Assembly (NCBI GenBank): GCA_030603165.1
Contig: JAUVYH010000001.1
Coordinates: 4,837 to 68,836, forward strand
DNA length: 64,000 nucleotides
From: Fidelibacterota bacterium
GTDB taxonomy: Bacteria > Fidelibacterota > UBA2242
Reading direction: 5' to 3'
This document shows, piece by piece, positions 1-63,536 of this stretch. The notes under the pieces are model-generated. The model had not been told where the DNA came from and did not search any database. It saw nothing but the letters and a program-made list of their open reading frames with translations. The position numbers and the translations under genes are program-made. How positions within the stretch are numbered: the stretch's first letter is position 1; each line of letters opens with the position of its first letter.

Positions 1-213
1 TTGATGATCGAATTATGATGCCAATTGATATTGTTATGAAAGAAAACATCGAATATTTTCAAATAGACATCGATAAATAGTACATTACCTAAAAATCCCA
101 AATAAGATCGAAAAAGCTATTATCACAAACAATTAGCCACCCCCTGAAAATCGGTAGTTGTGTTACTGTAACTAATTGATAAATACGGTAGTTATTTGAA
201 GAATTGATTTAAT

Positions 214-274: not shown

Positions 275-1555
275 ATGACAAATTTACACACCCAAAAGTT
301 ACAGACTAAATTCAACTATTACCTTAAAAAAATGTCTGAAAATATCACAAAGCCGGAAAGCCGATTCGTACATGAAACAGTATTAGGGGTCCTAAAAGGA
401 CAAACGGTAACAATGAACAAGATAGCAATTCATATTCAGGACAGTGTCCGATTAAAGAAAACGCTTGAGAGATTTCGGCGTCATTTTCAGAAACTTGGAT
501 TTTGGAGAAGACTGATAGAGTCTCATATTCAGTCGGTTAAATCCAAAATTAACAAGGATTATTATGCCATATTAGATATATCCGACATTCAGAAGAAATA
601 TTCAAGAATGATGGAAGGGCTGGCAAGGGTACACGATGGAAGTACCAATTCTATCGGATTAGGCTATTGGCTCATGAATATAATAGGGATAAACCAGACC
701 GGAGAACAAATCACACCGTTGTATAATAAATTGTACAGTTTTGAGATAGGGACACAAAGTGAGAATAGCGAAATACTGGAGGGAATCTTTACTGTAATGA
801 AGCATGTCGGCAAACAACTTACCCGGGTTATTGACAGAGGTGGAGACAGAACAAAATTGATTGTGCCATTATTAAGAAAGCGTTTAAAATTTATCATCCG
901 ATCATTAGGAAAGCGTAAATTGATATATCGGGGAAAAGTCAGAAGTATAAAATGGATTAGTAGAAAAGTAAATCTCCAATATCGATTAGAGGCGCAGAAA
1001 ATAAAGAAGAACCGCATCAGGAAGGAAATTTATTATGCCGGCGCTGTCCCTGTCCTGTTTATCAATGAGTACACCGGCTTACCATTTCCAAATGAATTGT
1101 GGCTAGTTGTTTTAAAGGGAGAAGGCAAAGGATATGGTTGGTATATTGTATCCACCGATAAAAAAACAGAGAGAGAGGTTGTAGAAGAATCCTTTCGGGG
1201 ATATGGTTATCGTTGGAAAATTGAAGAATATCACCGACATATAAAGAATCAATTCCATCTTGAAGATATTCAGATAAGGAAATTCGAAGGTCTAAGAACA
1301 ATGTTGTCAATTTTAACTATTGCTATGTATCTAATATACACAGAGATAAGTTCGCTCCATAATCAATTGTTGCTATGCAGTCCCATCAAAACTATAGAAA
1401 AGTATAGGCTACATGAGATATTAGGATTCATCTACTATAAAATAGAATTGATAGTCAAAATACTTTTGGCTGCCGTAACGGCGAAAATGTTCAGACCTGA
1501 CAAAAAGACATGTTATATCAATCAAAACCAGCTCGCTCTTGCACTAGAATTCTAA
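275..1555 (+). CDS. IS4-family DDE transposase (426 aa from ATG 275; ORF track start 242 lies inside an SD-sequestering hairpin)
   Basis: Y-x2-R-x3-E-x6-K signature 'YGYRWKIEEYHRHIK' typical of IS4 transposases. Perfect SD aaggagg 7 nt upstream of ATG 275. ~90% aa-identical frameshifted copy at 30389..31701 (-). Confidence 0.85.
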   Translation: MTNLHTQKLQTKFNYYLKKMSENITKPESRFVHETVLGVLKGQTVTMNKIAIHIQDSVRLKKTLERFRRHFQKLGFWRRLIESHIQSVKSKINKDYYAILDISDIQKKYSRMMEGLARVHDGSTNSIGLGYWLMNIIGINQTGEQITPLYNKLYSFEIGTQSENSEILEGIFTVMKHVGKQLTRVIDRGGDRTKLIVPLLRKRLKFIIRSLGKRKLIYRGKVRSIKWISRKVNLQYRLEAQKIKKNRIRKEIYYAGAVPVLFINEYTGLPFPNELWLVVLKGEGKGYGWYIVSTDKKTEREVVEESFRGYGYRWKIEEYHRHIKNQFHLEDIQIRKFEGLRTMLSILTIAMYLIYTEISSLHNQLLLCSPIKTIEKYRLHEILGFIYYKIELIVKILLAAVTAKMFRPDKKTCYINQNQLALALEF

Positions 1556-1741
1556 AAAACGGGGGGTGGCCAACAATTCCAGCAAAAAAACACTTGACAA
1601 TTACATTCTATTTAATGTAAACTAACATTGTGTACGTACACATAGTGAGGGTTAATTTTGAGATTACGTTTTTTTTTAATTTTCATTGTATAAACGCCTG
1701 CTTAGAAAATTGGCTATAACGGATATGGGGAGAATGAATAC

Positions 1742-8780: not shown

Positions 8781-10331
8781 ATGTTACGAATTATTTATTA
8801 TTTTCTTATCGCTCTTATGATAGGAATTTCGACAACGGTTCAAGCAGCGGATTTAAATGCTCGTATTAAGATTGATACTGAACGTACGATTGGTGAAATC
8901 AACAAAAACATATATGGCAATTTTGCTGAGCACTTAGGTCGTTGTATATATGGAGGCATTTACGATCCCGGTTCGAAACTCTCTAATAAAATGGGTTTTC
9001 GAAAAGATGTACTGAAAGCAGCCAAAGGTTTGAATGTACCTCTTCTGAGATGGCCGGGAGGGAATTTTGTATCCGGCTATCACTGGGAAGATGGAATTGG
9101 GCCGAAAAAGAATCGTCCGGAAAGAACGGATCTGGCGTGGCATACTCCGGAACCAAACACGTTTGGTACCGATGAGTTCATTGATTTTTGTCGTGCAGTG
9201 GGAACAGAACCGTACTTCGCAGTGAATTTAGGTACAGGTACACTGGATGAGGCCAGAAACTGGGTTGAATACTGTAATGTAAAAGAAGGCCCTTATTATG
9301 CCGAATTGCGAAAGAAGAATGGACATACCAAACCGCATAACGTTATGTACTGGTCATTGGGCAACGAAATGGATGGCTTTTGGCAAATGGGGCACAAAAA
9401 TGCCGATGACTACGGCAAATACGCCCTGGAAGCCGCAAAGCTGATGAAGTGGACTTCCCCGGAAATTAAGCTCATCGCGGCTGGCTCTTCAAATTTTTAT
9501 GGTGGAGCAGATCCGCACGGATGGAATAGAGTTGTGTTGGATTATTTGAAAGATTATGTCGACTACATTGCGCTGCACAAATATGTCGGGAACCGCGATA
9601 ACGACTATTATTCTTTCATGGCATCGACGATGGATATCGATGAACGGACGAGTATTGTTGAAGGTCAAATTAAGGAAGCATTATCCAAATCACGTCGAAA
9701 GACGCCGATCTATGTAGCCTGGGATGAGTATAATGTATGGTATCGGGCTCGTGGTGGAGCAGCGGCGAGAGGGAGAAATGCTCTGGAAGAAAAATACAAT
9801 CTGGAAGATGCGTTGGTTGTCGCGGGTTTCTTAAATGCATTTATCAGAAATGCTCACATTGTTAAAATGGCGAATATGGCTCAGTTGGTGAATGTAATTG
9901 CTCCTATCTTTACCAGTGAAACTGATATGTTCAGACAAACAATCTATTATCCACTCGCTCTTTATGCGAATAATTCGCACGGAACCGCCCTGGACGCTTT
10001 TGTGGATTCGCCAACCTATGATACAGAACAATGGAAACAGGTTCCGTATCTGGATGTATCTGTGGCGTATAACAATGATGAGGTCATTATAAATGTTGTA
10101 AACAGACATCTAGAAGAAAGTATTAATACGGAAATTATTAGCCAAACAGGCGAATTCAGTGGTACATTTTCGGTCTATGAAGTTAATGGCCCCGATGTTA
10201 AGACAGAAAACACATTTGGCAGTGAACCTGTAAAATCTGTTAAAAAACCCGGTATTAAAGTCAAAGGGAATAGTTTCTCTTATGAATTTCCTCCTCATTC
10301 ATATGTGATGATTAAAGGAAAGTTGAAATAA
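8781..10331 (+). CDS. abfA: GH51 alpha-L-arabinofuranosidase (secreted)
   Basis: 'NIYGNFAEHLGRCIYGGIYDPGS', 'LRWPGGNFVSGYHWEDGIGP', acid/base 'WSLGNEMDG', nucleophile region 'AWDEYNVWY'; signal peptide; 516 aa. Confidence 0.88.
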   Translation: MLRIIYYFLIALMIGISTTVQAADLNARIKIDTERTIGEINKNIYGNFAEHLGRCIYGGIYDPGSKLSNKMGFRKDVLKAAKGLNVPLLRWPGGNFVSGYHWEDGIGPKKNRPERTDLAWHTPEPNTFGTDEFIDFCRAVGTEPYFAVNLGTGTLDEARNWVEYCNVKEGPYYAELRKKNGHTKPHNVMYWSLGNEMDGFWQMGHKNADDYGKYALEAAKLMKWTSPEIKLIAAGSSNFYGGADPHGWNRVVLDYLKDYVDYIALHKYVGNRDNDYYSFMASTMDIDERTSIVEGQIKEALSKSRRKTPIYVAWDEYNVWYRARGGAAARGRNALEEKYNLEDALVVAGFLNAFIRNAHIVKMANMAQLVNVIAPIFTSETDMFRQTIYYPLALYANNSHGTALDAFVDSPTYDTEQWKQVPYLDVSVAYNNDEVIINVVNRHLEESINTEIISQTGEFSGTFSVYEVNGPDVKTENTFGSEPVKSVKKPGIKVKGNSFSYEFPPHSYVMIKGKLK

Positions 10332-10514: not shown

Positions 10515-12104
10515 ATGTATTACAACAAAATTTGGAGAAGGGTATCACTTGTAATGATGTCTAAATGTATGGTTGCTGTTTTATCGATCGTATTGTTTGT
10601 TGGCGTTGTTTCATTGACTGCCGCGGAAAATGTTAACAAATTAATCGTCAATACTGACCAGGGTAAGGAAACGATAAACCGTCACATTTATGGGCATTTT
10701 TCCGAACACCTGGGCCATTGTATTTATGGCGGGTATTGGGTTGGTGAGGATTCAGATATTCCGAATACCAGGGGGATCAGAAATGATGTGGTTGAAGCAT
10801 TGAGAAAAATTAATATTCCTAACCTTCGCTGGCCCGGCGGCTGCTTTGCTGATGAGTACCATTGGATGGATGGTATTGGACCGCGTAACAAACGTCCAAA
10901 AATGATAAATACGCATTGGGGCGGAGTCACTGAAGATAACAGCTTCGGAACCCATGAGTTTTTAGATTTATGCGAACAGTTAGGCACCGAACCTTACATA
11001 TGTGGAAATGTCGGCAGCGGTACTGTCGAAGAAATGTCGAAATGGGTTGAATATCTAAATTCTGATGGCATAAGCCCAATGTCTGATGAGCGAAGGAAAA
11101 ACGGACGGGATAAAGCCTGGGGTGTTAAATATTGGGGTGTTGGAAACGAAAACTGGGGATGTGGCGGAAATATGACCCCTGAGTTTTATGCCGATCAATA
11201 CAAACGGTTTGCCACATATTGCAGAAATTATGGCGACAACCGTTTACTAAAAATTGCCGGTGGGGCAAATACAGATGATTATAACTGGACAGAAGTTTTA
11301 ATGAAGAAAATTACTCCTCGGGGAATGTGGGGACTTTCATTGCATTATTATACAACAAATTGGTGGAATAAGGGATCAGCCACTGAATATGATAAAAAAG
11401 GATACTTTGAGGTGATGGATCGGTGTTTAAATATTTCCAAAGTGATTGACAGGCATATGACAATCATGGATAAATACGATCCTGAAAAAAGAGTAGCCCT
11501 GGTGGTTGATGAATGGGGCACCTGGTTTGATGTTGAACCTGGAACCAATCCGGGATTTTTATTCCAGCAAAACACGATTCGTGATGCGATTGTGGCGGGC
11601 ATTCATTTAAATGAATTCAATAAAAGGTGCGACCGTATTAAAATGGCCAATATTGCCCAAACTATCAATGTGCTTCAGGCATTGATTTTTACAAAAGATG
11701 AAAAAATGTTATTAACACCGACTTACCATGTTTTTGAAATGTACAAGGTTCATCAGGACGCCACTTTACTACCCACTGAGCTGCAGTGCACGGACTATAA
11801 GTTTGGGGATGAAAAACTCCCGGCATTGAATGCCTCGGCATCGAGAGACAAATCAGGGAAGATTCACATATCAATTTGTAATTTGGATCCAAATAAGTCT
11901 GCCAAACTTGATTGCGAATTGCGGGGTATCAAGGCGAAGAAGGTTTCCGGTCGTGTGTTAACCACAGCGGCTATCAATTCACACAATACTTTTGATAACC
12001 CGGATGTAGTTCATCCAACTATTTTTAAGGATGTCAAATTAAAAAGAGGTAAGTTAACCGCAACGCTCCCGGCAAAGTCAGTGGTGGTTTTTGAAATTGA
12101 GTAG
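10515..12104 (+). CDS. abfA: GH51 alpha-L-arabinofuranosidase, second paralog (secreted)
   Basis: '[24 protein letters not shown]', '[20 protein letters not shown]', 'WGVGNENWG', 'VVDEWGTW'; 529 aa. The start may be a downstream Met (MMSK..., 10551). Confidence 0.85.
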
Positions 12105-12232
12105 CATTTTGAGTTAATATTAAATTATGGGACAATTTAGTGAATGCACTCTTATGCAAACCCATACAGTAATTAAACAGTAATTTTAATGGTCATTCAT
12201 GTGAATAGTCCATCAACTGTGAAAAGGGAAAA

Positions 12233-13699
12233 ATGATGTGTAATGAGTTTAGGACAAGGTCGTCCCAGATGAAGGCTTATATAAAATTAAGCATTGTTGC
12301 ATATCTGTTATTGTTGATACTGGGTTTAAATTCGTGCGGAAAAGAAGATCCCATTCAAACGAATACAGATCTATATGATCCTGAAATAAATGACGATTAT
12401 AGCAGCATTGCGGAGATTGGCTATTCGAGCTTATGGGGCACCTATAATTTACACGATCCTTCAATTATCAAATTCGATAATATCTATTATATCTTTTCTA
12501 CCGATGTAGCCTATGGACCTAATGGTCGATGCGGTGTGATGTGGCGACAGTCGAATGATCTTGTTCACTGGAGTTTCAATGGCTGGGTATTCAACGGTGT
12601 TCCCAATAATCCTCTTGAATTTATGGAGGCTAATCAACCTGGCTATCGACAACTATCCATTTGGGCGCCTTATATCATAAAATCCGGTGAACAGTTCAGG
12701 CTTTATTATTCAGTACCAGGAAACGATTGGTTTAAGCTGGCATGTATTGGCTTAGCCACGAGTACTTCTTCTCTTGGCCCATGGAATGATGAAGGCATCG
12801 TGATCTCTTGTCTTCCCTCAGATCATTATAATGCCATTGATCCGGCCGTAATAGTTGATCAAGATAATGGCAAACACTGGTTTATATATGGTTCTTACTC
12901 ATCTGGCATATACATAGTTGAATTGGATCCTGCCACAGGCAAAATACTCAAAGCGGGCGATAAGGGGAAACGGATTGCCTACCGGGGAAAAGACCACGAT
13001 GCTATCGAGGGCGGAGAGATCATCTATAACCCGGAGTTTGATGCCTATTACCTTTTTGTTTCGTACGACTGGCTAGAAGACAATTATAATGTGCGTGTAG
13101 GTCGTTCCGACAAGCCTGAAGGTCCGTACCTTGATATCCATGGCAATAATATGGCTGACGTAGGAGATAACTATCCGATGATAACTGCCAAATACCGGTT
13201 TAAGGGACATGCCGGATGGCAGGGAGTCGGGCATTGTGGTCTCCTGAAAGATGGTGACGATTACTTTTTTGTGAGCCAAGGGCGGTTAAGCTCCAATATC
13301 TATCTGATGGTTTTACATGTTCGGCGAATGGTATGGACTCCTGACGGCTGGCCGGTTGTTTCACCAAACAGATATGCAGGAGTGCCGCAAACAGAGATCA
13401 CTACAGATGATATCGTCGGCAAATGGGAACATATCGATCTTGATGAAATTACAACAGTAAATCAGTCAATAGAAATTGAATTACTCAGTGATGGATCTGT
13501 TTCCGGAATCGAAAACTCAAGCTGGGATTATGAAGGCGAGTTGTTAACCCTTTCGTTAAATAACAGAGGAACAATTTATCAAGCCAGGGTTTTTAATGAA
13601 TGGGACTGGGTAAATAAATACCGCACGTTAGTATATACGGGATTAACATCTAATGGACAAGCCGGCTGGGGTAAAAAAATGAGTGAATTTACTCCTTAA
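12233..13699 (+). CDS. GH43 family glycoside hydrolase (arabinanase/arabinofuranosidase-type) lipoprotein
   Basis: 'YNLHDPSIIKFDNIYYIFSTD', 'WAPYIIKSGEQFRLYYS', 'DPAVIVDQDNGKHWFIYGSY' five-bladed propeller motifs; lipobox 'LNSCG'. The likely true start is Met at 12269. Confidence 0.8.
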   Translation: MMCNEFRTRSSQMKAYIKLSIVAYLLLLILGLNSCGKEDPIQTNTDLYDPEINDDYSSIAEIGYSSLWGTYNLHDPSIIKFDNIYYIFSTDVAYGPNGRCGVMWRQSNDLVHWSFNGWVFNGVPNNPLEFMEANQPGYRQLSIWAPYIIKSGEQFRLYYSVPGNDWFKLACIGLATSTSSLGPWNDEGIVISCLPSDHYNAIDPAVIVDQDNGKHWFIYGSYSSGIYIVELDPATGKILKAGDKGKRIAYRGKDHDAIEGGEIIYNPEFDAYYLFVSYDWLEDNYNVRVGRSDKPEGPYLDIHGNNMADVGDNYPMITAKYRFKGHAGWQGVGHCGLLKDGDDYFFVSQGRLSSNIYLMVLHVRRMVWTPDGWPVVSPNRYAGVPQTEITTDDIVGKWEHIDLDEITTVNQSIEIELLSDGSVSGIENSSWDYEGELLTLSLNNRGTIYQARVFNEWDWVNKYRTLVYTGLTSNGQAGWGKKMSEFTP

Positions 13700-23805: not shown

Positions 23806-24139
23806 ATATGAGATCGAGGGCAGTTAAAGTTATTCGAAGGTTTGTCATAGTTGAGGTGTACCCCTGAGGCTTGTGTCGGGGGTAGCTCATTATATCCTAA
23901 CCTGGATAAACCGGAATTTCAAATTGCAAATATCAAATTCTCTTTAGAATAGTTTGAATAATGAACAAGGAACATCGATTTTCGAATAATGAATTTTACT
24001 TCTTCCGCAAGGAATGCCTTTGGCAAAAAATCAACATTCAGCATTCCTTGTTCGATATTCAATATTCATTATGTGTCTTTTTACCGTCGAGAACTCCAGA
24101 TATTCTTTACAAAAAAACAAGAATTTGGGAATTAAGAGA

Positions 24140-29869: not shown

Positions 29870-30225
29870 TATTCTATCCCTCTATTGGTAAAAATTATTT
29901 CCTTATCTCCGTGAAAACTGGTAAATCCTTGTTTTCTTATACTCTTCATCCGGTTTTAAAACTACCGAAGGAAAGTCTGGTTTATTTAGCAAACCGAACT
30001 ATCATTCAGTTGTTCAGCCAATCAGACCGTTTTGAAAAAAACTTTTGTCCCTTCACACGGATGGTTTTCACCGTCATTGATGATAAGATGATGTTCCTTT
30101 ACGTCTATGCTGAATTTTCCTTTGCCGATCCGGTTTCCGTATCTGCCTGCACTGGTACGCGACATCATTTAACCAATTCTTTCAATTCTAAGTAAATCAT
30201 TTCTACTTATTCTCCCCATATCCGG

Positions 30226-31812
30226 TGTAGATAATTTTCTATTATGCAAGTTTTTATACAATGAAAACTATAAAAAAACTGTAATCTTAAAATTAATCTT
30301 CACTATGTGTACGTACACATAGTTAGTTTACATTAAATAGAATGTAATTGTCAAGTGTTTTATTGCTGGAATTGACCACCCCCGTTTTTTAGAATTCTAG
30401 TGTAATAGCGAGTTGGTGCTTGTTAATGTAGCATGTCTTTTTGTCAGGTAAGAATATTTTCGCCGTTACGGTAGCCAAAAGCATTTTGACTATCAGACCT
30501 ATTTTATAGTAGATGAATCCTAATATCTCATGCAGTCTATACTTTTCTATAGTTTTGATGGGACTGCATAGCAACAATTGATTATGGAGCGAACTTATCT
30601 CGGTGTATATTAAATACATAACAATAGTTAAAATTGATAACATCGTTCTCAAGCCCTCAAATTTTCTTAACTGAATATCTTCAAGATGGAATTGATTCTT
30701 GATATGTCGATGATATTCTTCGATTTTCCAGCGATAACCATATCCCCGAAAGGATTCTTCTACAACATCTCTTTCTGTTTTTTTATCGGTGGACACAATA
30801 TACCAACTATATCCTTTGCCTTCTCCCTTTAAAACAACCAGCCACAATTCATTTGGGAAAGGTAATCCGGTGTACTCATTGATAAACAGGACAGGAACAG
30901 CGCCGGCATAATAAATTTCCTTCCTGATTCGTTCTTCTTTATTTTCTGCGTCTCTAATCGATATTGGAGATTTACTTTTCTACTAATCCATTTCATACTT
31001 CTGACTTTTCCCCGATATATCAAATTACGTTTTCCTAATGATCGGATGATAAAGTTTAAACGCTTTCTTAATAATGGAACAATCAATTTTGTTCTATCTC
31101 CACCTCTGTCAATAACCCAGGTAAGTTGTTTGCCGACATGCTTTATTACAGTAAAGATTCCCTCCAGTATTTCACTATTCTCACTTTGTGTCCCCTCATT
31201 AAAGCTGTACAACTTGTTATAGAGCGGTGTGATTTGTTCTCCGGCGTGGTTTATTCCTATTATATTCATGAGCCGGTAGCCTATTCCGATAGAATCGGTG
31301 CTCCCATCGTGTACTCTTGCCAGCCCTTCCATCATTCTTGAATATTTCTTCTGAATATCAGATAAATCTAATATTGCATAATCACTCTTATTAATTTTGG
31401 AGCTAACCGACTGAATATGAGACTCAATCAATTTTCTCCAAAATCCTATCTTTTGAAAGTGACGCCGAAACCTCTCAAGCGTTTTCTTTAGTCGAATGCT
31501 ATCCTGAATATGAATTGCTATCTGGTTCATTGTAACCGATTGCCCTTTTAGTATTCCTAATACTGTTTCATGTACGAATCGGCTTTCCGGCTTTGTGATA
31601 TTCACAGATAATTTTTTAAGGTAATAGTTGAATTTTGTCTGTAACTTCTGTGTGTGTAATTTTGTCATAGTAACGCCTCCTTTTTTATGATTCTTTAACA
31701 ACCATAATTTAACAAATGGAGGCGTTATTATTAAATCATTTCTTCAAATAACTACCGTATTTATCAATTAGTTACGATAACACTATTACCGATTTCCAGA
31801 GGGTGCCAATCA
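30226..31812 (-). mobile_element. IS4-family insertion sequence, copy B (inverted, decaying)
   Basis: Nucleotide similarity to copy A across the whole element, including the tgtgtacgtacaca palindrome (30308..30321) and the SD-sequestering stem. Confidence 0.75.
30389..31701 (-). pseudogene. IS4-family transposase disrupted by 1-bp deletion (two ORFs 30829..31701 and 30389..30847)
   Basis: Copy A 'aagaagaaccgcatcaggaagg' versus the reverse complement of copy B 'aagaagaacgaatcaggaagg' (around 30945). ~90% aa identity to copy A on both sides of the frameshift. Confidence 0.8.
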
Positions 31813-31908
31813 ATTTATAAACACTGCCGCTTTTTACCAATGGAATACCTTTGATGATTTTTTCCTCTGAAGTTACCCCAAAATTTAAGCGCTGTACCTT
31901 GGTTAATA

Positions 31909-32026
31909 GAGGAAATAAGGGAATAAGGGAAATAGGGGAAATATTGATGAGATTTCTAATATATCAGAAACCAGATAAAATCTACCAAATGAAATCTTAT
32001 ACCCCTTATATCCTTATATCCCTCCT
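31909..32026. repeat. Tandem GGAAATAAGG-type octamer array plus inverted GGGATATAAGG array (related to 56246..56342)
   Basis: 'ggaaataagggaataagggaaataggggaaata' (31911..31941) and 'cttataccccttatatccttatatccctcc' (31996..32026). The second is the reverse complement of the motif present at 56251..56283. Confidence 0.5.
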
Positions 32027-32269
32027 GCCTGCCCTCGGAAAGGGGAGGTCGATTGGAATATCCATGAAACAAGGCTTTTTCCAGCTCAACTTTCCTAAAT
32101 TACTATTCCACTTGTCAATGTGTTTTATCATCTTTAAATATAAAATATTGCGCTATAAGGGATTTCCAATTTCGGGGGAACTTTAGTTTTTCCTCTATTG
32201 AATCTTTCACAACATATATACAATCTCAGCAGTTTGATTCCTTGACATTTAAGCAAATAGAATGGAAAT

Positions 32270-33091
32270 TTGCTCATTATGAAAGATTTAAACTGGTATT
32301 TTCCCAAATCCATTGCCGAAGCTGTCGATTTAGTGCAGCAAGGTAAAATTCTTCCTCATGCAGGCGGAACAGGTCTGTTGCCAAGAGGTTTCACCGGAAT
32401 TGGCGGGCTCATTGATCTTTCCCGCCTGCCATTACATTATTCTAAAATTGAAAATGGTTCCGTTGAAATCGGCAGTATGAGTACTTATGCCGAAGTTGTC
32501 TCCGCATTAATGGCGATTAACCCGGAACATATTCTGGTGAAATCCTTGCGCAATTCCGCCAATACGCCCCTCAGAAACAGGATAACAATCGGCGGCAGCA
32601 TCGCCTTTTTTCCACCCTGGTCGGATCTTATGGGCGCACTGCTGGCGCTGGAAGCAAAGTTGGTGTTGGTCGGCAAGAACAGCGGTGAATTTTCAGTGAC
32701 CGATTATGTGACGAACAAAACCTTGCGGGAAAAATCGCTGATAACTGCGGTCAAATTCAACTTGTCGAATTTGCGCTCTTACCATTACCGTGACATTCGG
32801 ACTAAAAGCGACTATCCGGCTTTCAATATCACAATCCTGTTGAAACAAAGCATGAATAAAATCGAAAACAGCCGGGTTATTATTGTCGGAACTGTAAAAA
32901 AGTATAGCCGTCTCACAACTATTGAAGAATATCTGAAAAACCGGGATGTTGGAAAAATCAATATCGAAGAAATTGAAAAATTGGTTGAAGTTAAATTCGC
33001 CGGTAAAAGAATAGACGATCCGGAGTATTCAAGTTATTTAGCCGGTGTGGAGCTGGGCAGAGGAATCGAACAGCTATTGAGAGGACATTAA
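32270..33091 (+). CDS. Molybdenum hydroxylase FAD-binding subunit (CoxM/XdhB/YgfM-like)
   Basis: 'LPHAGGTGLLPRG', 'TIGGSIAFFPPWSDL'; 273 aa; stop overlaps the FeS subunit start. Confidence 0.8.
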   Translation: MLIMKDLNWYFPKSIAEAVDLVQQGKILPHAGGTGLLPRGFTGIGGLIDLSRLPLHYSKIENGSVEIGSMSTYAEVVSALMAINPEHILVKSLRNSANTPLRNRITIGGSIAFFPPWSDLMGALLALEAKLVLVGKNSGEFSVTDYVTNKTLREKSLITAVKFNLSNLRSYHYRDIRTKSDYPAFNITILLKQSMNKIENSRVIIVGTVKKYSRLTTIEEYLKNRDVGKINIEEIEKLVEVKFAGKRIDDPEYSSYLAGVELGRGIEQLLRGH

Positions 33092-33564
33092 TGGAAAGCG
33101 TATTTACTGTTAACGGGAAAAATATAAAATTTACCTTTACACCTGACGAAAGACTGCTTTTTACATTGCGAGAAAACGGATATACCGAGGTGAAAAACGG
33201 CTGCCAGGAAGGCGAATGCGGCGCCTGTTTAATTTTGCTTGATGATAAACCCGTAAATTCCTGCCAGGTGCTCACGGCATCCGCCATCGATAAAAATATC
33301 AAAACGGTGAAAGGAATTGGCGACTTGCATTCTCCGCATATCATTCAACGCGCTTTTGTTGAGACCGGAGCCGTGCAATGCGGTTTTTGCACACCGGGAA
33401 TGATTATTGCGACCTATGCTTTATTGCGGGATAATCCGAATCCTACGGAAGAAGAAATAAAAAACGCACTGGACGGCAATCTCTGCCGCTGCACCGGTTA
33501 TGTAAAGATTATCGAAGCGGTTCAGCTGGCTGCCGAACGGATGAAGAATAGAGAATTGGAGTGA
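33091..33564 (+). CDS. Molybdenum hydroxylase [2Fe-2S] small subunit
   Basis: 'GCQEGECGACLILLD..NSCQVL' and 'QCGFCTPGMI...LCRCTGY' give both 2Fe-2S cysteine clusters; 157 aa. Confidence 0.88.
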   Translation: MESVFTVNGKNIKFTFTPDERLLFTLRENGYTEVKNGCQEGECGACLILLDDKPVNSCQVLTASAIDKNIKTVKGIGDLHSPHIIQRAFVETGAVQCGFCTPGMIIATYALLRDNPNPTEEEIKNALDGNLCRCTGYVKIIEAVQLAAERMKNRELE

Positions 33565-33657
33565 TGGAGTGTTGAAACGTGGAGTATTGGAGTTTTGGAG
33601 TATTGTTTACAATAGTCTTTACATTACTCCTTTACTCCAGTACTCCACCACTCCAAA
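33556..33657. repeat. Long imperfect inverted repeat built from (GGAGT-N3) units / (ACTCC-N3) units
   Basis: Left arm 'ttggagtgatggagtgttgaaacgtggagtattggagttttggagtattg'; right arm 'cattactcctttactccagtactccaccactccaa'. The outer 16 nt pair 14/16. Overlaps the stop of the FeS gene. Confidence 0.6.
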
Positions 33658-33743
33658 CAAATTTTAAGCGGAGATAAATGTAAACCATGCCCGATTATTA
33701 TTAGTTAGATTATGATTAACTTTGCGTAAACAGGACTTGTATA

Positions 33744-35063
33744 TTGAAGAAAATGCATAAAATAATAAACGGTGACAGTCGACAGATGAATCTTGTCTCT
33801 GATAAGTCGGTACAATTGGTAGTAACATCCCCACCGTATTGGCAGCTGAAAGACTACGGAACAGAAAACCAAATAGGATATCATGAAGATTACGAAACGT
33901 ATATTAATAGCCTGAATTTGGTTTGGAAGGAATGTTACCGTGTGCTCGATAATGGTTGCCGTTTATGTATTAATATCGGAGACCAATTTGCTCGCGCTGT
34001 CTATTATGGACGTTATAAAGTTATCCCAATTCGAACTGAGATAATCAAATTTTGTGAAAGTATCGGATTTGATTATATGGGGGCTATCATTTGGCAAAAA
34101 CAGACCACCACTAACACGACAGGTGGTGCATCATTAATGGGAAGCTATCCTACGCCAAGAAACGGAATAATCTCTATTGATTATGAATTTATCTTATTGT
34201 TTAAAAAGTTAGGCTCACCACCTAAAGTAAGTAGGGAAATAAAGGAACAATCGAAACTTACAAAAGAAGAATGGAAAGAATATTTTTCAGGCCATTGGAC
34301 TTTTGGTGGAGCCAGGCAAGATGGTCATATTGCCATGTTTCCTGAAGAATTACCAAAGAGACTAATAAAAATGTTCGCTTTTAAGGGTGAGACAGTATTA
34401 GACCCTTTTATGGGGAGTGGAACAACATCTTTAGCTGCAAGAAACTTAAATAGAAATTCGATCGGCTATGAAATTAATCCCGACTTCATTGAGATAGCCA
34501 AAAAGAAACTGGGCGTTAACTATACAGATATTTCGGGAATAAAATATGAGTTCCCGAAAGATAGTTTCAATTTAGACATAGAAAGAAAACTTAATAATCT
34601 TCCTTACAGATTTGTTGATTTACAAAAGCTTGATAAAAAAATCGATCCCAAGAAAATGAGATTTGGGTCAAAAATAGATCAACATAATTTTCAAAGAGAA
34701 GAATATTACTCCGTAAAAGAAGTTCTCAGTCCTGAACTTATTAAATTAAACAATGACCTTGTGGTTCGCCTTATTGGTGTTAAACAAAAAGAATCTACAA
34801 ATGGACGAGCAATAAAGTTTATAATTGATAAAACAAAAGGGCAGAAGGTTTTTTTAAAATTTGATAATCAGAAATATGATAATGCAAACCATCTTTTATG
34901 CTATCTGTATTTAAAGAATAAAACTTTTATCAATGCTCACCTTATTAAAGAGGGCTTGGTTGAGCCGGCAACATCATTCGATTTTAAATACAAAGACAAA
35001 TTTTTTACTTTGAGCAATAATAAAGACACCATTAACCAGATGGAACAGATTATACAATGTTGA
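33744..35063 (+). CDS. Orphan beta-class DNA methyltransferase (N6A/N4C; motif IV SPPY before motif I) with C-terminal SNase/thermonuclease-like domain
   Basis: 'LVVTSPPYW' (motif IV), 'VLDPFMGSGTTSLAA' (motif I). C-terminal 'VVRLIGVKQKES...HLLCYLYLKNKTFINAHLIKEGLVE' resembles the SNase OB-fold (..RLLLVDTPE...[24 protein letters not shown]), but DTPE is replaced by KQKE. Appears AT-richer by eye. Confidence 0.75.
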   Translation: MKKMHKIINGDSRQMNLVSDKSVQLVVTSPPYWQLKDYGTENQIGYHEDYETYINSLNLVWKECYRVLDNGCRLCINIGDQFARAVYYGRYKVIPIRTEIIKFCESIGFDYMGAIIWQKQTTTNTTGGASLMGSYPTPRNGIISIDYEFILLFKKLGSPPKVSREIKEQSKLTKEEWKEYFSGHWTFGGARQDGHIAMFPEELPKRLIKMFAFKGETVLDPFMGSGTTSLAARNLNRNSIGYEINPDFIEIAKKKLGVNYTDISGIKYEFPKDSFNLDIERKLNNLPYRFVDLQKLDKKIDPKKMRFGSKIDQHNFQREEYYSVKEVLSPELIKLNNDLVVRLIGVKQKESTNGRAIKFIIDKTKGQKVFLKFDNQKYDNANHLLCYLYLKNKTFINAHLIKEGLVEPATSFDFKYKDKFFTLSNNKDTINQMEQIIQC

Positions 35064-35324
35064 TTTTTTTATTAAAATTCAGGACAAATTTATCGGTCTT
35101 CAAATTAAACCAGTAAATCAGGGGATACAACTATCTCAAATATTTAAAGAAAAAGGACTTCAAGAAAAAACACACCGAAAATTCGAAAAAGAATTTGGCG
35201 GGAAAGTCTTTTACATATTTTCATCAAAAGCAAATGGAAAAAAGGTAATTGTCAACACGGATATAATAGACGAGATCAGGAATGAGATAAAAAAACTCGA
35301 AACACTTCAAGAAGTTAAATAATT

Positions 35325-42267: not shown

Positions 42268-42315
42268 TTTTAACCTGATTAATTTACAAACCGCAGAGAA
42301 CGCAAAAAACATAGA

Positions 42316-42856
42316 GATATGATAAATAAAAAAGAATTTTTATTGATATTAGGAGAAGGTGATTGGAAAAATGGATTTCTCTAAACTGCGTAATATTACA
42401 ATCGGCAGAATCTTTTCCGAATTAAAGATTATCGAGCAGTGGGGACGAGGATTTTCTAATATTATTAAATCTTGTAAACAGTGTGAGAATATTGTTCCAG
42501 AATTTAAAGAAGAATTGTTGCAGTTTAAGATTATTTTTTGGAATAAGAAAATAGATAAAAGAGTCGGTGATAAGTTCGGAGAAAAGGTGGGTATAAAGGT
42601 CGGTGATAAGGTCGGTGATAAGGTGGGTAGAAAGGGTGGTCAGAAAGGGTGGTCAGAATTAACTGAACGACAGGAAGAAATATTAAATTTAATTGAACAA
42701 AATAACAAAATATCAAGAAAGCAATTATCGGAAATATTAAATATAAACCCTTCCGCTATCCAAAAACACATAAATAAACTAAAACAGAAAGGTCTTCTTA
42801 AAAGAATCGGTCCGGCAAAAGGTGGATATTGGGAGATTGTTTCCGATGCCCAGTAA
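42316..42856 (+). pseudogene. Internally deleted copy of AlbA_2/HATPase_c_4 HTH protein (N-terminal 16 aa fused out of frame to C-terminal ~165 aa)
   Basis: 42316 'MINKKEFLLILGEGDW' matches 'MNKKELSLILQEGEGY' of 43339. ORF 42359..42856 matches the C-terminal third of 43339..44712 (..KLKQKGLLKRIGPAKGGYWEI vs ..KLKQEGKLKRVGSAKGGYWKV). Confidence 0.65.
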
Positions 42857-43338
42857 ATACCCAGAAACTACCCGGAAAAAATTACAATGAATGGTTTTAG
42901 TTCGGAGAAATGTTGGTCAGAAAAGGTAGGCAGAAATGGTGGGTAGAAAAAGTGGTCAGTAAATACCCAGTAAATATTTACACCGAATGAGTATTCACAA
43001 TTTGTTCGGAGAAAGTTCGGAGAAAAGGTGGGCAGATAATAAACAGAAATCTAAAATATCACTGGAATGTCACCACTTGTCACCAGATGTCACTACGATT
43101 TAAAAAATGTAGATTAATATCAAATATGGAAAGAAAGATTGCACTAGAGGATTTGATGAGTCAAACTTAAGAAATATGAGAATGTTTTATCTAACATTTC
43201 CAAAATGTAACGCACTGCGTCACGAATTGAGTTGGACCCATTACTGCTGTTTTAATAAAGTTGAAAATTAGGAATTAGATAGAGAATTAACCAGAGAAAG
43301 ACAAATGATTGAATTGGAAAGAAGATTGGGGAAAAAAG

Positions 43339-44712
43339 ATGAATAAGAAAGAACTATCTTTGATATTACAAGAAGGTGAAGGATACTTCACAGAATTCAA
43401 AGAAGGACTTTCGGGTGTTGATAAAGATTTTGTTGCATTTGCAAATTCTTCTGGAGGTAAAGTATTAATCGGTGTTACTGATGACGGAAAAGTTAAAGGC
43501 ATAACAATAACAAATAGAATAAAATCTGAAATCCAAAATATTTCAAGAAATTGTGATCCAGAAATAAAACTTTTCGTTAAATCCTTTGAAAACATTCTTA
43601 TTGTAGAAGTAAGAGAAGGTAAGGATAAACCATATAAATGTTCATCAGGATTTTACAAACGGATAGGTGCAACATCTCAAAAAATGACAAGAAATGAAAT
43701 CTTAAGTTTCTTTAAATCTGAAGGTAAAGTAAGATTTGATGAACTTATAAATACAGAATTTAAATATCCCAAAGATTTTAACAGAGATAGGCTAAATATC
43801 TTTTTGGAATTAGCAGGACTTTCTAAAACATTATCAATTGATAAAATTCTCACAAGTTTAGGAGTGGTAGAGCATCAAAACGGAAATTTATATTTTAATA
43901 ATGCAGGTGTTCTCCTATTTGCAAAAGAACCTCAGAATATTATATCCTGGTCTGTGTTTACAGTAGTATTATTTAAGGACAAAGAAGGAGTTGATGTAAT
44001 TGATAGAAAAGAAATAACAGGATCATTATTTGAGATCATTGAGCAAGTAATGGGATTTGTGAAATTATATACAAAAGTTGCCTATAGAATTACTGGAAAA
44101 CCTCAAAGAGAAAATATATATGAATATCCATTTGAAGCAATTCGGGAAGCTGTCATAAATTCTGTTATGCATAAAGATTATTTTGAACGTGGACATAATA
44201 ATATACTGAAATTTTTCCCGGATAGAATTCAAATAGAAAATATCTGGGTCAAGCCACAGAACTTTATTCTGGGTAAAACTGTTTTTAGAAGAAATCACCT
44301 TATTGCTGATCTATTCTCTCGTATAAATTTTGGTGAGAAACTGGGTTCAGGTGTGAAAAGAATGAGGGATGTCTGCCAGAAAGAAAATTCTCCCTATCCT
44401 GAAATAGAATATACTAACACTCATTTTTATATTGTATTCAAGCAAAGTAAAGAATATTTGAAATTAGAGAGTATTACCCCAAAAACTACCCAAAAAACTG
44501 GGGTTAAAACTGGGGTTAAAACTAGGGTGAAAACTAGGGGGGAAATAATAAACCTTATTAACGAGAACTCTAAGGTAACCATTCGAGAACTTGCTGAAAG
44601 AACGAGTTTGACTGTTAAAGGAATTGAATGGAATATTAAGAAACTTAAGCAAGAGGGCAAATTAAAAAGAGTAGGATCTGCTAAAGGCGGATATTGGAAA
44701 GTGATAAAATGA
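43339..44712 (+). CDS. AlbA_2 (divergent AAA/Schlafen-like) + HATPase_c_4 + C-terminal wHTH protein, 'RecG-like' putative transcriptional regulator
   Basis: 'YFTEFKEGLSG...FANSSGGKVLIGVTDDGKVKGI' AlbA_2 N-domain; C-terminal wHTH; internal (TGVK)n tandem peptide repeat 'TTQKTGVKTGVKTRVKTRGE'. The ORF track starts at 43309, but the homologous remnant supports 43339. Confidence 0.65.
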   Translation: MNKKELSLILQEGEGYFTEFKEGLSGVDKDFVAFANSSGGKVLIGVTDDGKVKGITITNRIKSEIQNISRNCDPEIKLFVKSFENILIVEVREGKDKPYKCSSGFYKRIGATSQKMTRNEILSFFKSEGKVRFDELINTEFKYPKDFNRDRLNIFLELAGLSKTLSIDKILTSLGVVEHQNGNLYFNNAGVLLFAKEPQNIISWSVFTVVLFKDKEGVDVIDRKEITGSLFEIIEQVMGFVKLYTKVAYRITGKPQRENIYEYPFEAIREAVINSVMHKDYFERGHNNILKFFPDRIQIENIWVKPQNFILGKTVFRRNHLIADLFSRINFGEKLGSGVKRMRDVCQKENSPYPEIEYTNTHFYIVFKQSKEYLKLESITPKTTQKTGVKTGVKTRVKTRGEIINLINENSKVTIRELAERTSLTVKGIEWNIKKLKQEGKLKRVGSAKGGYWKVIK

Positions 44713-44828
44713 AATTTTTGTGTGAAAAGAAAGAAGAAATATGAATAAAAAATTATACGAAGAAAAAAAAGAAAAAGTAAAAGCTGGCTTGGAAGAATAT
44801 TTCTCTAATGGTGTAAGAAAGGAAAAAA

Positions 44829-45149
44829 ATGATTATCAAAGAATCAGTGAAAATTGAAATAAAAGAGATTATTGAAAAATTCAATAGAGAAAAATTTGCA
44901 AGTAAAGATGTTTTTTATTTCCCGAAATTTAAGAAGAATTATTTATATCTATTTATAAATAGATACGGGGATATCGATCCTATGTGCCGATTAAAATATA
45001 ATGGCAAAATGACAAACTGGGATTTCGAGATCTTCAAATATTCATCGGAAACTTATACTGATGATATTTTCCTTATGCCGGGAGCAGAAGAAGTTGATGG
45101 TACAATCAAGGGAGCAATGCTCGCAGGTTTAGAACTTTATCCTGTTTGA
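44829..45149 (+). CDS. Hypothetical protein (106 aa), no recognizable domain
   Basis: ORF with reasonable codon usage following the AlbA_2 gene; weak RBS. Confidence 0.35.
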   Translation: MIIKESVKIEIKEIIEKFNREKFASKDVFYFPKFKKNYLYLFINRYGDIDPMCRLKYNGKMTNWDFEIFKYSSETYTDDIFLMPGAEEVDGTIKGAMLAGLELYPV

Positions 45150-45225
45150 AAATAAATCAAAATAATAATCTGTGCGTATCTGTGAAAATCCGTGGAGAAA
45201 AAAAAAGAAAAGGAGATATATAAAG

Positions 45226-56212: not shown

Positions 56213-56245
56213 CCTAAATTACTCATCGCCACTAAGATACTACAA

Positions 56246-56342
56246 GGGTATAGGGATATAAGGTATAAGGTATAAGTTATAAGCGTTCGGGATATAGAGG
56301 TATTCCCTGTATTGCCCATATTTCCATATTTCCACTATTTCT
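56246..56342. repeat. Tandem GGTATAAGG / inverted GGAAATATGG octamer arrays (related to 31909..32026)
   Basis: 'gggtatagggatataaggtataaggtataagttataag' then 'cccatatttccatatttccactatttc'. The same two motif classes occur in opposite order and orientation at 31909..32026. Confidence 0.5.
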
Positions 56343-56503
56343 CTTGTTCCATTCACTAAGTCTTAATGTCTTTCCCCGAAGGGATTCGGAAGTGGCAAGA
56401 TTTATGAATTAAACAGGATAGAGAGTTCCATTTCCGGTTATAAGATTATTGCATGAGTCAATATCCTGATGTATATTCTTACTGGTAAGATAAAAGGTGC
56501 AAT

Positions 56504-56767
56504 ATGAAAACAATCTCAACAACTAAAATGTCATCTAAAGGACAGGTCGTTATTCCAGAGAAAATCCGCAAACAATTGGGGTTGAAGTCCGGGGTGCAAT
56601 TTGTCGTGTTAGGTAAAGACGATGTAGTTATTTTAAAAGCCATCGAATCGCCGTCCATTAGCGAATTTGATAAATTAATTCTTCGGGCAAGAGAACAAGC
56701 TGTGCAATATGGCTTAAAACAGACAGATATTGAGGAAGCAATTTCGGAAGTCAGGAACGCTCATTGA
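56504..56767 (+). CDS. AbrB/MazE/SpoVT-type antitoxin
   Basis: 'MSSKGQVVIPEKIRKQLGLKSGVQFVV' swapped-hairpin AbrB-type motif; 87 aa; TTGA overlap with the downstream toxin. Confidence 0.75.
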   Translation: MKTISTTKMSSKGQVVIPEKIRKQLGLKSGVQFVVLGKDDVVILKAIESPSISEFDKLILRAREQAVQYGLKQTDIEEAISEVRNAH

Positions 56768-57177
56768 AAATTGTTCTTGATACCAATGTGTTGATGTCCG
56801 GTATGTTTTTTAGCGGTCCGCCACATGAAATTTTAAAACTGTGGAGGGATGGACAAATTGAACTTTTAATATCAGATGCAATTTTCGAAGAATATCAGCG
56901 TGTTGGTTTGGTATTGGCAAAAAAATACCCTGGAATTGATATCAGTAGTTTTCTTAATTTGATCCAACGGAGAGCAATTTTGATCGATACACTGGTTGAA
57001 ATCTGTAATATTTGCGCCGATTCCGATGATGATAAATTCCTCGAATGCGCTGTTAATGCAAAGTGTAACATGATTGTCAGTGGCGATAAGCATTTGCTGG
57101 CAGTTTCCGGATTTCAGAGTATTCAGGTACTTAGTCCAAGAGAATTTACCACCCTTTTCCGGGAGGATTATCGATGA
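56764..57177 (+). CDS. PIN-domain toxin (VapC-like, PIN_3 type)
   Basis: 'IVLDTNVLMSGMFF' N-terminal acidic motif, 'ISDAIFEEYQRV', 'VSGDKHLL'; 137 aa; TTG start. Confidence 0.7.
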   Translation: MKIVLDTNVLMSGMFFSGPPHEILKLWRDGQIELLISDAIFEEYQRVGLVLAKKYPGIDISSFLNLIQRRAILIDTLVEICNICADSDDDKFLECAVNAKCNMIVSGDKHLLAVSGFQSIQVLSPREFTTLFREDYR

Positions 57178-62804: not shown

Positions 62805-62921
62805 ACACCTGTCAGGTTTAATCAGTTAATCTTATCTGGGTCGGAAGAACCTAATAAACCTGACAGGTGTAATAGCTTAATCTTATCCGGGTTGGAAGAA
62901 TCTAATAAACCTGACAGGTGT
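62805..62921. repeat. REP-like palindromic elements (one complete 16-bp-stem hairpin plus a partial tandem unit)
   Basis: acacctgtcaggttta (62805..62820) / taaacctgacaggtgt (62855..62870) perfect 16-bp stem with 34-nt loop. The loop plus right arm is repeated at 62871..62921. A third copy is at 63286..63351. Confidence 0.7.
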
Positions 62922-62924
62922 AAT

Positions 62925-63281
62925 AGCTTAATTACCCAGGCTTTTTCTAATTTATTCAACTGCTACGCTAAATCCATCAACCGACAAGAGAACCGCTCGG
63001 GCAGTCTGTTTGAAAGACCATTCAAGCGAAAACTCATTGATACCGAAGAATATTTGAGAATGATTATCATCTATATTCACTTGAATCCCGTTCATCATCA
63101 AATAACCCAATCTTTCGAAAATTATCGCTGGAGTTCCTATAAAACTCTGCTTGGTAACCAGCCAACTAAATTGCCTCGCAAAACCGTGTTTGATATTTTC
63201 AAAGGGAGAGACCGGTTTATAGAAGATCATCGAAACGCAAAAATAAATTATCTGGAGATAGCGAAATATGCATTGGAATAA
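62925..63281 (+). pseudogene. RAYT / IS200-like Y1 transposase remnant lacking the HuH N-terminal half
   Basis: 'AFSNLFNCYAKSINRQENRSGSLFERPFKRKLIDTEEYLRMIIIYIHLNPVHH...YRWSSY' aligns to the C-terminal half of RayT/PF01797. The upstream part of ORF 62697..63281 is translation of the REP-like hairpins. Confidence 0.6.
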
Positions 63282-63285
63282 CCTT

Positions 63286-63351
63286 ACACCTGTCAGGTTT
63301 AATCAGTTAATCTTATCTGGGTTGGAAGGATCTAATAAACCTGACAGGTGT
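63286..63351. repeat. REP-like hairpin, third copy
   Basis: acacctgtcaggttt...taaacctgacaggtgt with the same loop sequence as 62805..62870. Confidence 0.7.
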
Positions 63352-63536
63352 ATTCCCCGACGGTCTCTGTCGCAGCATAAAACAATTCTTGACTTTAAAA
63401 GGATTGTCGAGTATCTTCAAGCGAAATAAAAGCGCAGTCTGGAATGATGAAAAGAACGGCAAAAATATTATACTTATTAGATTCAAAACTGCAAATAAGA
63501 AAAATCCTTCTTATAGAAAATTTTTAAAAGGTATCT

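Follow-up and report, generated by a model that had tools for sequence, protein, structure and literature searches.

Paired inverted tandem arrays in a Marinimicrobia Mo-hydroxylase cluster: probable arms of small mobile modules and the relic of a four-helix-bundle gene cassette

The role of the S23p open reading frame (ORF) in 23S rRNA intervening sequences (IVSs), and the way in which these sequences move, have been a puzzle since the early 1990s, and the short tandemly repeated repetitive (STRR) elements of cyanobacteria were described around 1990. In the present study, a stretch of 64,000 nucleotides (nt) from a Fidelibacterota (Marinimicrobia) bacterium (assembly GCA_030603165.1, contig JAUVYH010000001.1, positions 4,837 to 68,836; the whole stretch is called the window below) was analyzed, in which paired short-unit tandem arrays of opposite orientation are found at three loci, S1, S2, and S3. 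The kinds of element already known that bear on these arrays are STRR hairpins between subunit genes, S23p IVSs, REPINs (doublets of repetitive extragenic palindromes), and miniature inverted-repeat transposable elements (MITEs). In Coxiella, the IVS carries an S23p ORF, has a 28-bp terminal stem that is cut by RNase III, and shows variable-copy tandem heptamers upstream of the ORF (PMC4990558). For S23p from Xanthomonas, a homopentameric structure has been reported (PMC4990558). In cyanobacteria, hairpins made of STRR 7-mers are found in intergenic regions, one example being the gap between hupS and hupL, and have no known function (PMC2670836).

All three sites in the window are insertion polymorphisms. 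The arrays are probably paired arms belonging to small mobile modules, each of which is built of a G-rich array of three to six units of 7–9 nt, a cargo, and a complementary C-rich inverted array. S1 and S2, which carry no gene, belong to a Marinimicrobia-specific family in which arms of the GGAAATAAG and GGATATAAG types enclose a conserved core of about 53 nt, and S3 is the 5′ boundary of a four-helix-bundle (4HB) cassette, the gene of which was destroyed here, leaving a relic hairpin between the 2Fe-2S and Mo-subunit genes.

The first-pass annotation had placed octamer arrays at 31909..32026 (S1), 56246..56342 (S2), and 33556..33657 (S3), and all of them were recovered by reading of the sequence, by Tandem Repeats Finder (TRF), and by a repeat finder. 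The octamer description held for S3, with its 8-nt unit, and was not uniform for the other two, in which the units are 8–9 nt (S1) and 7–9 nt (S2). Each array has three to six copies and all positions are intergenic in the window, as is the case for STRR-type tandem repeats. The arrays are non-random: with period 7–9, at least three copies, and a score of at least 40, TRF reported six arrays in the window, five belonging to S1, S2, and S3 and the sixth being an A/T run at 25611, and it reported none in 40 dinucleotide-preserving shuffles of the window. The RNA-fold analysis suggested in the first pass gave an exceptional fold only at the S3 hairpin (z -7.0), and the folds of S1 and S2, which are inverted and pair weakly, were no better than those of shuffled sequences (z -0.3 to -1.7). 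S1-family modules pair weakly because the units of their two arms differ at one consistent position per unit. S3 had also been called related to S1 and S2; it shares with them the paired inverted architecture and has no resemblance in sequence.

The S3 hairpin lies on the plus strand at the end of the 2Fe-2S gene (33091-33564). Its 5′ arm, (TGGAGTNN) x5-6 at 33556..33605, provides with its first unit the last codons and the TGA stop of that gene; a loop (33606..33623 in the predicted fold) separates it from the 3′ arm, (NNACTCCA) x4 at 33624..33656, and the two arms fold together at -47.8 kcal/mol. In several of the comparison loci or contigs retrieved for the window, which carry L labels here, a 151-amino-acid (aa) ORF lies between the 2Fe-2S and Mo-subunit genes (L001, L002, L005, L012, and L013), with TGGAGT-type units before it and ACTCCA-type units after it. 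The ORF in the L002 cassette matched PF05635, "23S rRNA-intervening sequence protein" (E 9.5e-22), and TIGR02436, "four helix bundle protein" (E 4e-23). In the window, only a remnant of this gene, ATG CCC GAT TAT at 33687..33698 (plus strand), could be aligned with L001/L002 and L003. It is followed by an inserted N6/N4 DNA methyltransferase gene (33744..35063, plus strand; PF01555 E 8e-45), which replaced the 4HB gene and the distal 3′ arm of the cassette; no ACTCC array was found in 35064-35324, downstream of the methyltransferase gene. L003 shares this insertion into the 4HB ORF and has a longer remnant than the four codons of the window, and the window junction looks like a further deletion through CGATTAT microhomology. 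The insertion is shared with L003 (about 11380-12760) although the FAD subunits are only 61% identical, and it has a weak SNase-like C-terminal match. At L004 the site is empty, with the 2Fe-2S stop overlapping the start of the next gene, and L006 keeps only the 3′ end of the ORF and the ACTCCA array. Comparison of L002 with the window and L001 showed arm-length indels of 15 nt in the 5′ arm and of one 8-nt unit in the 3′ arm. The 4HB proteins of L005 and L002 are 84% identical, whereas the FAD subunits of these loci are only 58% (L005) and 85% (L002) identical to that of the window, which suggested horizontal movement or unusual conservation of the 4HB gene. A tblastn search with 4HB proteins found no second or hidden 4HB gene in the window, and an exact-protein look-up of the window 2Fe-2S subunit gave no match.

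The same architecture was found widely around 4HB genes in metagenomes. Among the best 80 of more than 443 4HB relatives, which were kept from a metagenome scan, about 92% had (TGGAGTNN)n upstream and (NNACTCCA)n downstream. At least three GGAGT motifs occurred within 150 nt upstream of the 4HB gene in 70 of the 76 loci with enough flank, and at least three ACTCC motifs followed the gene in 71/77, against a background of 0.16 per 150 nt. Successive array cores were 8 nt apart in 408 cases, and the arms typically had three to five units (mode 4, range 2-13). The idea that five repeats match a pentameric protein was considered and is unsupported by this distribution of unit numbers. About half of the 5′ units read GGAGT(G/A)ATGG, in which GGAG is joined to a stop codon overlapped by an ATG. 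In 47 of 59 loci, an ORF upstream runs in the same direction and stops close to the 5′ array: no more than 40 nt short of it at 34 loci and within it at 13, where an array unit supplied the stop; the stops take the form GGAGTGATGG or GGAGTAATGG. A co-directional ORF followed in 53/60 loci, with 17 distinct, unrelated downstream gene families. This co-directional placement in many operon contexts indicates that the cassette is a mobile, operon-embedded unit. The upstream and downstream arms had a duplex energy of -68.8, compared with -43.8 for shuffled sequence; duplex energies of this kind are inflated by long loops. The 4HB protein family is large: this sub-lineage alone has more than 4,400 clusters at 90% identity.

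Further arrays were seen near cassettes of this kind. At L073 453-508 (within 431-575), a second array type, (GAGTTACAT) x6, is found after the 4HB stop codon and before the ACTCCA arm, with a 19-nt inverted repeat (GTGCCGTGACAGGCTAAGT / ATTTAGCCTGTCACGGTAC) on either side of it; this nesting is evidence that modules may insert into one another. Heptamer arrays lie near GGAGT-type cassettes in three unassigned metagenomic contigs. In L035 (1610-1686), (GAAACTG)4(AGCAACS)5 appears to be in frame, within a linker of a histidine-kinase-like ORF; L043 (5891-6021) has three adjacent arrays; and L044 (1468-1635) has a solo inverted pair, (GAAACTT/TGGAAAC)x5 ... (AAGTTTC)x5, with a 90-nt spacer.

Other 4HB lineages have other motifs. 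Two distant 4HB paralogues in the same metagenomic loci are flanked by (GAGGATCG)n/(ATCCTCNA)n (L082) and (GGTTCAGA)n/(TCTGAACC)n (L085). For plasmid-borne 4HB genes of cyanobacteria, the flanks are (GGGTGTA)n/(TACACCC)n in Nostoc punctiforme and Calothrix, (GGGAACA)4/(TGTTCCC)6 in Nostoc edaphicum and Nostoc C052, and (GGCAGAR)n/(YTCTGCC)n in PCC 7120, HK-01, and Stanieria, and a Riemerella plasmid 4HB gene has (AACCTTGA)n downstream. Identity between two proteins is 73% or more if they belong to one motif class and does not exceed 64% if they belong to different ones; judged by these comparisons, the repeat motif tracks the 4HB protein lineage. Inverted short tandem arrays flanked the 4HB gene in every lineage inspected (Marinimicrobia, Cyanobacteria, Bacteroidota, and unassigned metagenomic contigs). 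The cyanobacterial heptamer arrays at 4HB genes resemble the STRR sequences of the literature.

S1 is a 318-bp insertion (31869..32186, plus strand) that is absent from L002 in the alignment and consists of a non-coding, MITE-like frame with one hairpin module. The terminal inverted repeats (TIRs) of the frame, AAGTTACCCCAAAATT and, as reverse complement, AAGTTCCCCCGAAATT, match at 14/16 positions; the left one (GAAGTTACCCCAAAATT, 31869..31885) stands exactly at the insertion boundary and pairs with the right one (AATTTCGGGGGAACTTTAG, 32168..32186). Outside them lie exact copies of the 10-bp direct repeat TTTTTCCTCT (31859..31868 and 32187..32196), a putative target-site duplication, since L002 has a single copy, TTTTTCCCTTT, at its uninterrupted site. 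Within the frame, on the plus strand, the module begins with the A-array of four units (GGAAATAAG / GGAATAAG / GGAAATAGG / GGAAATA, 31911..31943), continues with a 53-nt core (TTGATGAGATTTCTAATATATCAGAAACCAGATAAAATCTACCAAATGAAATC, 31944..31996) that is near-invariant in six aligned copies from three sources, and ends with the B′-array of three units (CTTATACC / CCTTATATC / CTTATATCC, 31997..32025), which complements the A-array imperfectly, each unit having one systematic mismatch.

Relatives of S1 were found by a protein search with the translation of a spurious ORF across S1, which led to two further spurious ORFs. One lies in L242, from the same metagenome-assembled genome (MAG) as L001, the closest relative of the window, at a different locus beside a PGI gene, and the other in the short contig L243. 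Both carry three tandem modules, those of L243 with a 159-nt period inside a copy of the S1 frame. The S1 module is 90-92% identical to the three L243 copies and to two L242 copies, and its arms vary in unit number while the core stays almost invariant. The two frame copies found, in the window and in L243, are 83.5% identical over 188 nt on opposite strands, whereas the modules match on the same strand; thus the module is a separate unit that sits in either orientation in the frame. The L243 flanks match at 9/11 positions, and the frame TIR resembles the end of an insertion sequence (IS) in the window only loosely. Public gene calls P0209 (L243 373-837) and P0210 (L242 1-294) read through the tandem S1-type modules as repetitive "hypothetical proteins" and can be taken, with near certainty, as errors of annotation.

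S2 is an insertion of about 209 bp (56213..56421, minus strand) between the stop codon of a 208-aa gene and the mazE promoter region. Its B-array of five units (GGGTATA / GGGATATAA / GGTATAA x2 / GTTATAA, 56246..56283, read on the plus strand) is of the GGTATAA/GGATATAAG type, and its A′-array of three units (CCATATTT x2, CCACTATTT; 56315..56343, plus strand) is the reverse complement of GGAAATAT-type units. On the minus strand, S2 was matched by the middle, short-loop module of L242 (72% over 104 nt, E 4e-8) and, in a further match, by the S1 A-array. S2 is thus an inverted (reverse-complement) variant copy of the S1 module family, which accounts for the swapped order and orientation correctly read in the first pass. 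The loops of S2 and of the middle L242 module (L242b) are shorter than the S1 core or unrelated to it. As possible direct repeat and TIRs of the S2 insertion, only a 4-5-bp ATAG repeat and termini matching at about 9-10 of 14 positions were seen; a terminus CCTAAATTACT shared by S1 (32093) and S2 (56213) was considered and dropped, its score lying within the shuffle range. S2 is absent from L092/L093, which keep the flanking gene (93% identity) and the MazE-PIN toxin-antitoxin (TA) pair, and also from L094 and L095, which have other arrangements at the site. All three arrays do stand next to inserted genes, as first noted, yet they are independent insertions, as the TA pair without S2 in L092/L093 illustrates. 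The suggestion that the arrays are ends of a small non-autonomous mobile element was in essence correct for S1 and S2, which are gene-less insertion polymorphisms, and fell short for S3, which is an arm of a gene-carrying cassette.

Arrays of other kinds were also seen. In L006 (Marinimicrobia, FAD subunit 57% identical), a (CAAAGTT/TAAAGTT) x7 array at 154-201 lies beside a duplicated block of about 120 nt, directly upstream of the xanthine dehydrogenase (XDH) operon promoter region, where the window has S1. Scans of viral contigs for the A and B motifs returned mostly AT-rich low-complexity sequence of giant viruses and were uninformative on the S1 family; an inverted array pair was present in only 1/145 viral-contig loci. 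This was L116 (IMG/VR contig 3300028025_005037, phage-like), in which a near-perfect hairpin, (GGAAATAC)3 - 55 nt - (GTATTTCC)3, at 9596-9715 (-52.4 kcal/mol, z -10.9) has a module-like architecture without relation to the S1 core.

The first-pass annotation had offered, as another candidate, iteron- or operator-like binding sites for a regulator of the cluster, that is, a ModE/XdhR-type protein controlling the Mo-hydroxylase/purine genes. The arrays are indeed intergenic in the cluster, a promoter-like site (32234-32263) follows S1 at a distance of about 40 nt, and inverted pairs of tandem direct repeats formally fit multimeric binding. However, this proposal fails because the arrays are not conserved at orthologous sites and occur in unrelated contexts: relatives with the same operon lack S1 (L002), S2 (L092-L096), or S3 (L004), S1-type modules stand beside the PGI gene of L242 and on L243, and S3-type arrays are found in at least 17 other contexts. 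Furthermore, Pfam annotation showed no regulator gene beside the arrays, and the S1 element does not include the promoter block (CTTGACATTTAA...) that is conserved among relatives, so that we give operator sites next to no credence. Local slippage repeats, non-mobile and kept by the host as RNA hairpins that stabilize, process, couple, or terminate transcripts, with the 4HB gene merely tending to sit there, would explain the arm-length differences of one to two units, and the very stable S3 hairpin and the G-rich units with GGAG and TAATG/TGATG would suit such a role; the hairpins of cyanobacterial STRR sequences have been proposed to stabilize transcripts or couple translation (PMC2670836). 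Against slippage, the motif follows the 4HB protein lineage and not the host across at least 17 gene contexts and several phyla, and the S1 core and flanks are 83-92% identical at unrelated loci and come with TIRs and a 10-bp direct repeat. In addition, a terminator scan made no call of a terminator-like hairpin with a U tract at S1, S2, or S3, and the S1 and S2 hairpins are weak. An origin by slippage is therefore improbable.

The near-invariant core of S1, with arms that vary in unit number and two small internal stem-loops in its predicted fold, would also be expected if S1 and S2 were genes for structured small RNAs, the arrays serving as an extendable basal stem around a functional core. 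We see only a slim chance of this. Rfam 15 gave no family in the window at the gathering threshold and, at relaxed E-value, only sub-threshold matches resembling eukaryotic miRNA precursors or snoRNAs, which are generic hairpins; the fold z-scores are not significant; the loops of S2 and L242b differ from the core; and the copies are too similar for covariation. Tandem amplification and the presence of both orientations in the MITE-like frame fit selfish DNA better. A somewhat stronger competitor, still unlikely, holds that the arrays act at the DNA level as transposase or recombinase sites (Tn7/Mu-type) or as HUH-recognized, REPIN-like hairpins, mobilized in trans by the DDE IS of the window or by a REP-associated tyrosine transposase (RAYT). 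The units are inverted at the two ends, the S1 frame has TIRs, which loosely resemble the left end of the window IS, as well as a 10-bp duplication, and a truncated RAYT gene with its own palindromes lies at 62806-63352. However, 7-8 bp is a short spacing for protein sites repeated along duplex DNA, the RAYT remnant has other palindromes (ACCTGACAGGTGT) at its sides and no arrays, no transposase was ever adjacent to the 4HB cassettes in the 80 loci inspected, and the occurrence of the module in either orientation in one frame separates frame ends from module arms.

The reading of the arrays as arms of small mobile modules, which we prefer to these alternatives, suggests the following course of events. 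In relatives, S3-type modules carry as cargo the PF05635/TIGR02436 4HB gene for "23S rRNA intervening-sequence protein" (S23p), and in the window the methyltransferase insertion would have deleted this gene together with the distal arm, leaving the relic hairpin. The S1 module is nested in a MITE-like frame and S2 is an inverted variant copy; these gene-less modules, which belong to a family that is multi-copy and tandemly amplified at other loci (L242, L243), would be non-autonomous derivatives. Paired arms of 24-40 nt could form a long double-stranded stem, and the G-rich arm would supply stop codons, a GGAG Shine-Dalgarno sequence, and TAATG/TGATG stop-start overlaps, signals by which, we propose, insertion inside an operon is tolerated. 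Tentatively, and by analogy with the RNase III-cut terminal stem of S23p-carrying 23S IVSs, the arms may serve, in the transcript, as a nucleic-acid stem around the cargo. That the 4HB protein recognizes its own flanking repeats is conceivable, if doubtful. The most speculative form of the idea, which as a whole is rather unlikely, would make PF05635 4HB the protein of widespread, selfish, operon-embedded cassettes with lineage-specific inverted array ends of 7-8-nt units: a multimeric, Avd-like protein would recognize the flanking repeats as RNA or single-stranded DNA and promote excision and/or spread, 23S IVSs would be the rRNA special case, and STRR arrays as well as S1 and S2 would be non-autonomous derivatives or footprints.

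Several observations weigh against the mobile-module interpretation. The covariance analysis proposed in the first pass gave no significant locus-specific covariation between the arms of 4HB cassettes (same-locus duplex -68.8 vs. different-locus -64.8, p = 0.06). No pair of empty and filled sites was similar enough for target-site duplications of the 4HB cassette to be delimited. The folds of S1-family modules are weak (z -0.3 to -1.9), and the stem may not be their functional form; eight module copies from three sources were all that was recovered. The link of S1 and S2 to the 4HB cassettes is architectural and not demonstrated, since neither a 4HB gene nor any other was found to lie within GGAAATAAG-type arms. 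Finally, repeats are prone to mis-assembly in MAGs and metagenomes.

The surroundings of the arrays contain many other insertions. By Pfam annotation, the window has an arabinan-utilization segment at 1-30 kb and a purine/Mo-hydroxylase cluster at 32-62 kb, and the FAD subunit gene beside S1 has its closest relatives in Candidatus Neomarinimicrobiota (SAR406) MAGs (L001 94%, L002 85%). Two DDE_Tnp_1 IS copies of about 1.6 kb, inverted and 90.4% identical (138-1735, plus strand, and 30209-31805, minus strand), bracket the 28-kb arabinan-utilization segment in a composite-transposon-like arrangement. The transposase of the second copy (copy B) is split into ORFs 30389-30847 and 30829-31701, and L002 has neither this copy nor S1 at the site. 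The insertions in the Mo-hydroxylase cluster are the N6/N4 methyltransferase gene (33744-35063), an AlbA_2/Schlafen segment (42.3-45.1 kb), and the MazE-PIN pair (56504-57177). The second of these, about 2.9 kb at 42268-45191, is absent from L002, where a 1084-aa oxidoreductase gene is followed directly by a carbamoyltransferase gene. It contains a truncated HATPase_c_4-wHTH ORF (42359-42856) with 12-13-nt tandem arrays of AAGGTCGGTGAT / AGAAAAGGTGGGC (42557-42660, 42906-42963, and 43004-43045), and a full AlbA_2/Schlafen-HATPase_c_4-wHTH gene (43309-44712) with a (AAAACTAGGGTT) x3.8 array at 44494-44539. Other insertions in the same cluster were seen in the close relatives L092 (3260-9853 and 11380-13088) and L093: RadC, methyltransferase, DUF1016, and ResIII helicase genes lie between the FAD subunit and the 208-aa gene, and a Fic gene appears to have split or duplicated the 5′ end of xdhC (a 52-aa ORF beginning MKNIYNEILEL). 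The cluster is a hotspot for the insertion of defence and TA genes.

Two further structures of the window may be mentioned. A long imperfect hairpin at 23947-24067, between a convergent 96-aa ORF and araA, has GAATAATGAA / TTCATTATTC-type arm repeats (-32.4 kcal/mol, z -3.3) and may be a module-like element or a bidirectional RNA-stabilizing hairpin. Near the end of the window, a palindromic repeat about 66 nt long (ACACCTGTCAGGTTTAATCAG...TAAACCTGACAGGTGT), with copies at 62806-62935 and 63285-63352, lies on both sides of an ORF remnant (62940-63281) for the C-terminal part of a RAYT (NF047646 E 6e-9, model 90-146 of 146); the whole, 62806-63352, looks like a decayed RAYT/REPIN system.

The main interest of these results lies in the general architecture of the cassette, of which S3 is a relic, with S1 and S2 as lineage-specific selfish repeats. 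It ties together two old puzzles, namely the role of the S23p ORF with the movement of IVSs and the nature of the cyanobacterial STRR repeats, and a defined cassette makes the question experimentally tractable. For annotation, it accounts for intergenic arrays that recur as "low-complexity" sequence, for ORFs called spuriously across them, and for upstream genes with changed C-termini, and the Mo-hydroxylase cluster of the window becomes a hotspot of small insertions and not a specially regulated locus. In the full-text literature, nothing was found that links PF05635, S23p, or 4HB to flanking inverted tandem arrays beyond the Coxiella IVS; subscription papers were mostly outside the scope of this search, and a prior description is possible. 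A literature string search for GGAGT arrays returned only unrelated primers.

Compared to the described systems, the 4HB cassette is most similar to the 23S IVSs with an S23p ORF, as in Leptospira and Coxiella burnetii. Both have a PF05635 cargo and complementary terminal sequences that give a long stem, and in Coxiella the ORF of the IVS is in addition closely preceded by GACAGAT heptamers in tandem, the number of which varies (PMC4990558). The sporadic distribution of 23S IVSs suggests horizontal transfer (PMC4990558). Unlike these IVSs, which occupy helix 25/45 of 23S rRNA, the cassette stands between protein-coding operon genes, both here and in at least 17 other contexts, and no rRNA was found in the window by the Rfam scan, nor any tRNA gene. 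Furthermore, the arms of the cassette consist wholly of tandem 8-mers, the ORF of the window is destroyed, and excision by RNase III is suggested here by analogy only. At the level of the protein family, the cargo also resembles Avd, the accessory protein of diversity-generating retroelements (DGRs), which has the four-helix-bundle fold (PF05635); the solved relatives 2GSC and 2RLD were both deposited with five chains. In contrast to Avd/DGR systems, the neighbourhood of the cassettes showed neither a reverse transcriptase nor template/variable repeats.

REPINs, which are mobilized by RAYTs, share with the modules that they are small, gene-less, inverted hairpin doublets, multi-copy and non-autonomous (PMC3116915), whereas their arms are single palindromic units of 20-30 nt and not tandem 8-mer arrays; no RAYT was linked to the arrays of the window, its only RAYT fragment having its own, unrelated palindromes. 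The S1 frame is MITE-like in being 318 bp long and non-coding and in having TIRs at the insertion boundaries and a 10-bp direct repeat, and at its second copy, in L243, the direct repeat is imperfect and about 10 bp long. Unlike in MITEs, the arrays are not the ends of the element; they form an internal module that occurs in either orientation, in one to three tandem copies, and also outside the frame (S2 and L242). Finally, STRR sequences resemble the modules in their tandem units of about 7 nt, often in inverted pairs, and in their intergenic hairpins between small- and large-subunit genes, and 4HB genes of Nostoc, Calothrix, and Stanieria are flanked by STRR-like heptamer arrays. To our knowledge and in the literature searched, STRRs have not been tied to PF05635 genes. 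STRRs belong by definition to heterocyst-forming cyanobacteria, whereas the host here is a member of Marinimicrobia (FCB group), the units are 8-9 nt, and in the S1 family the core is conserved and the arms are not identical.

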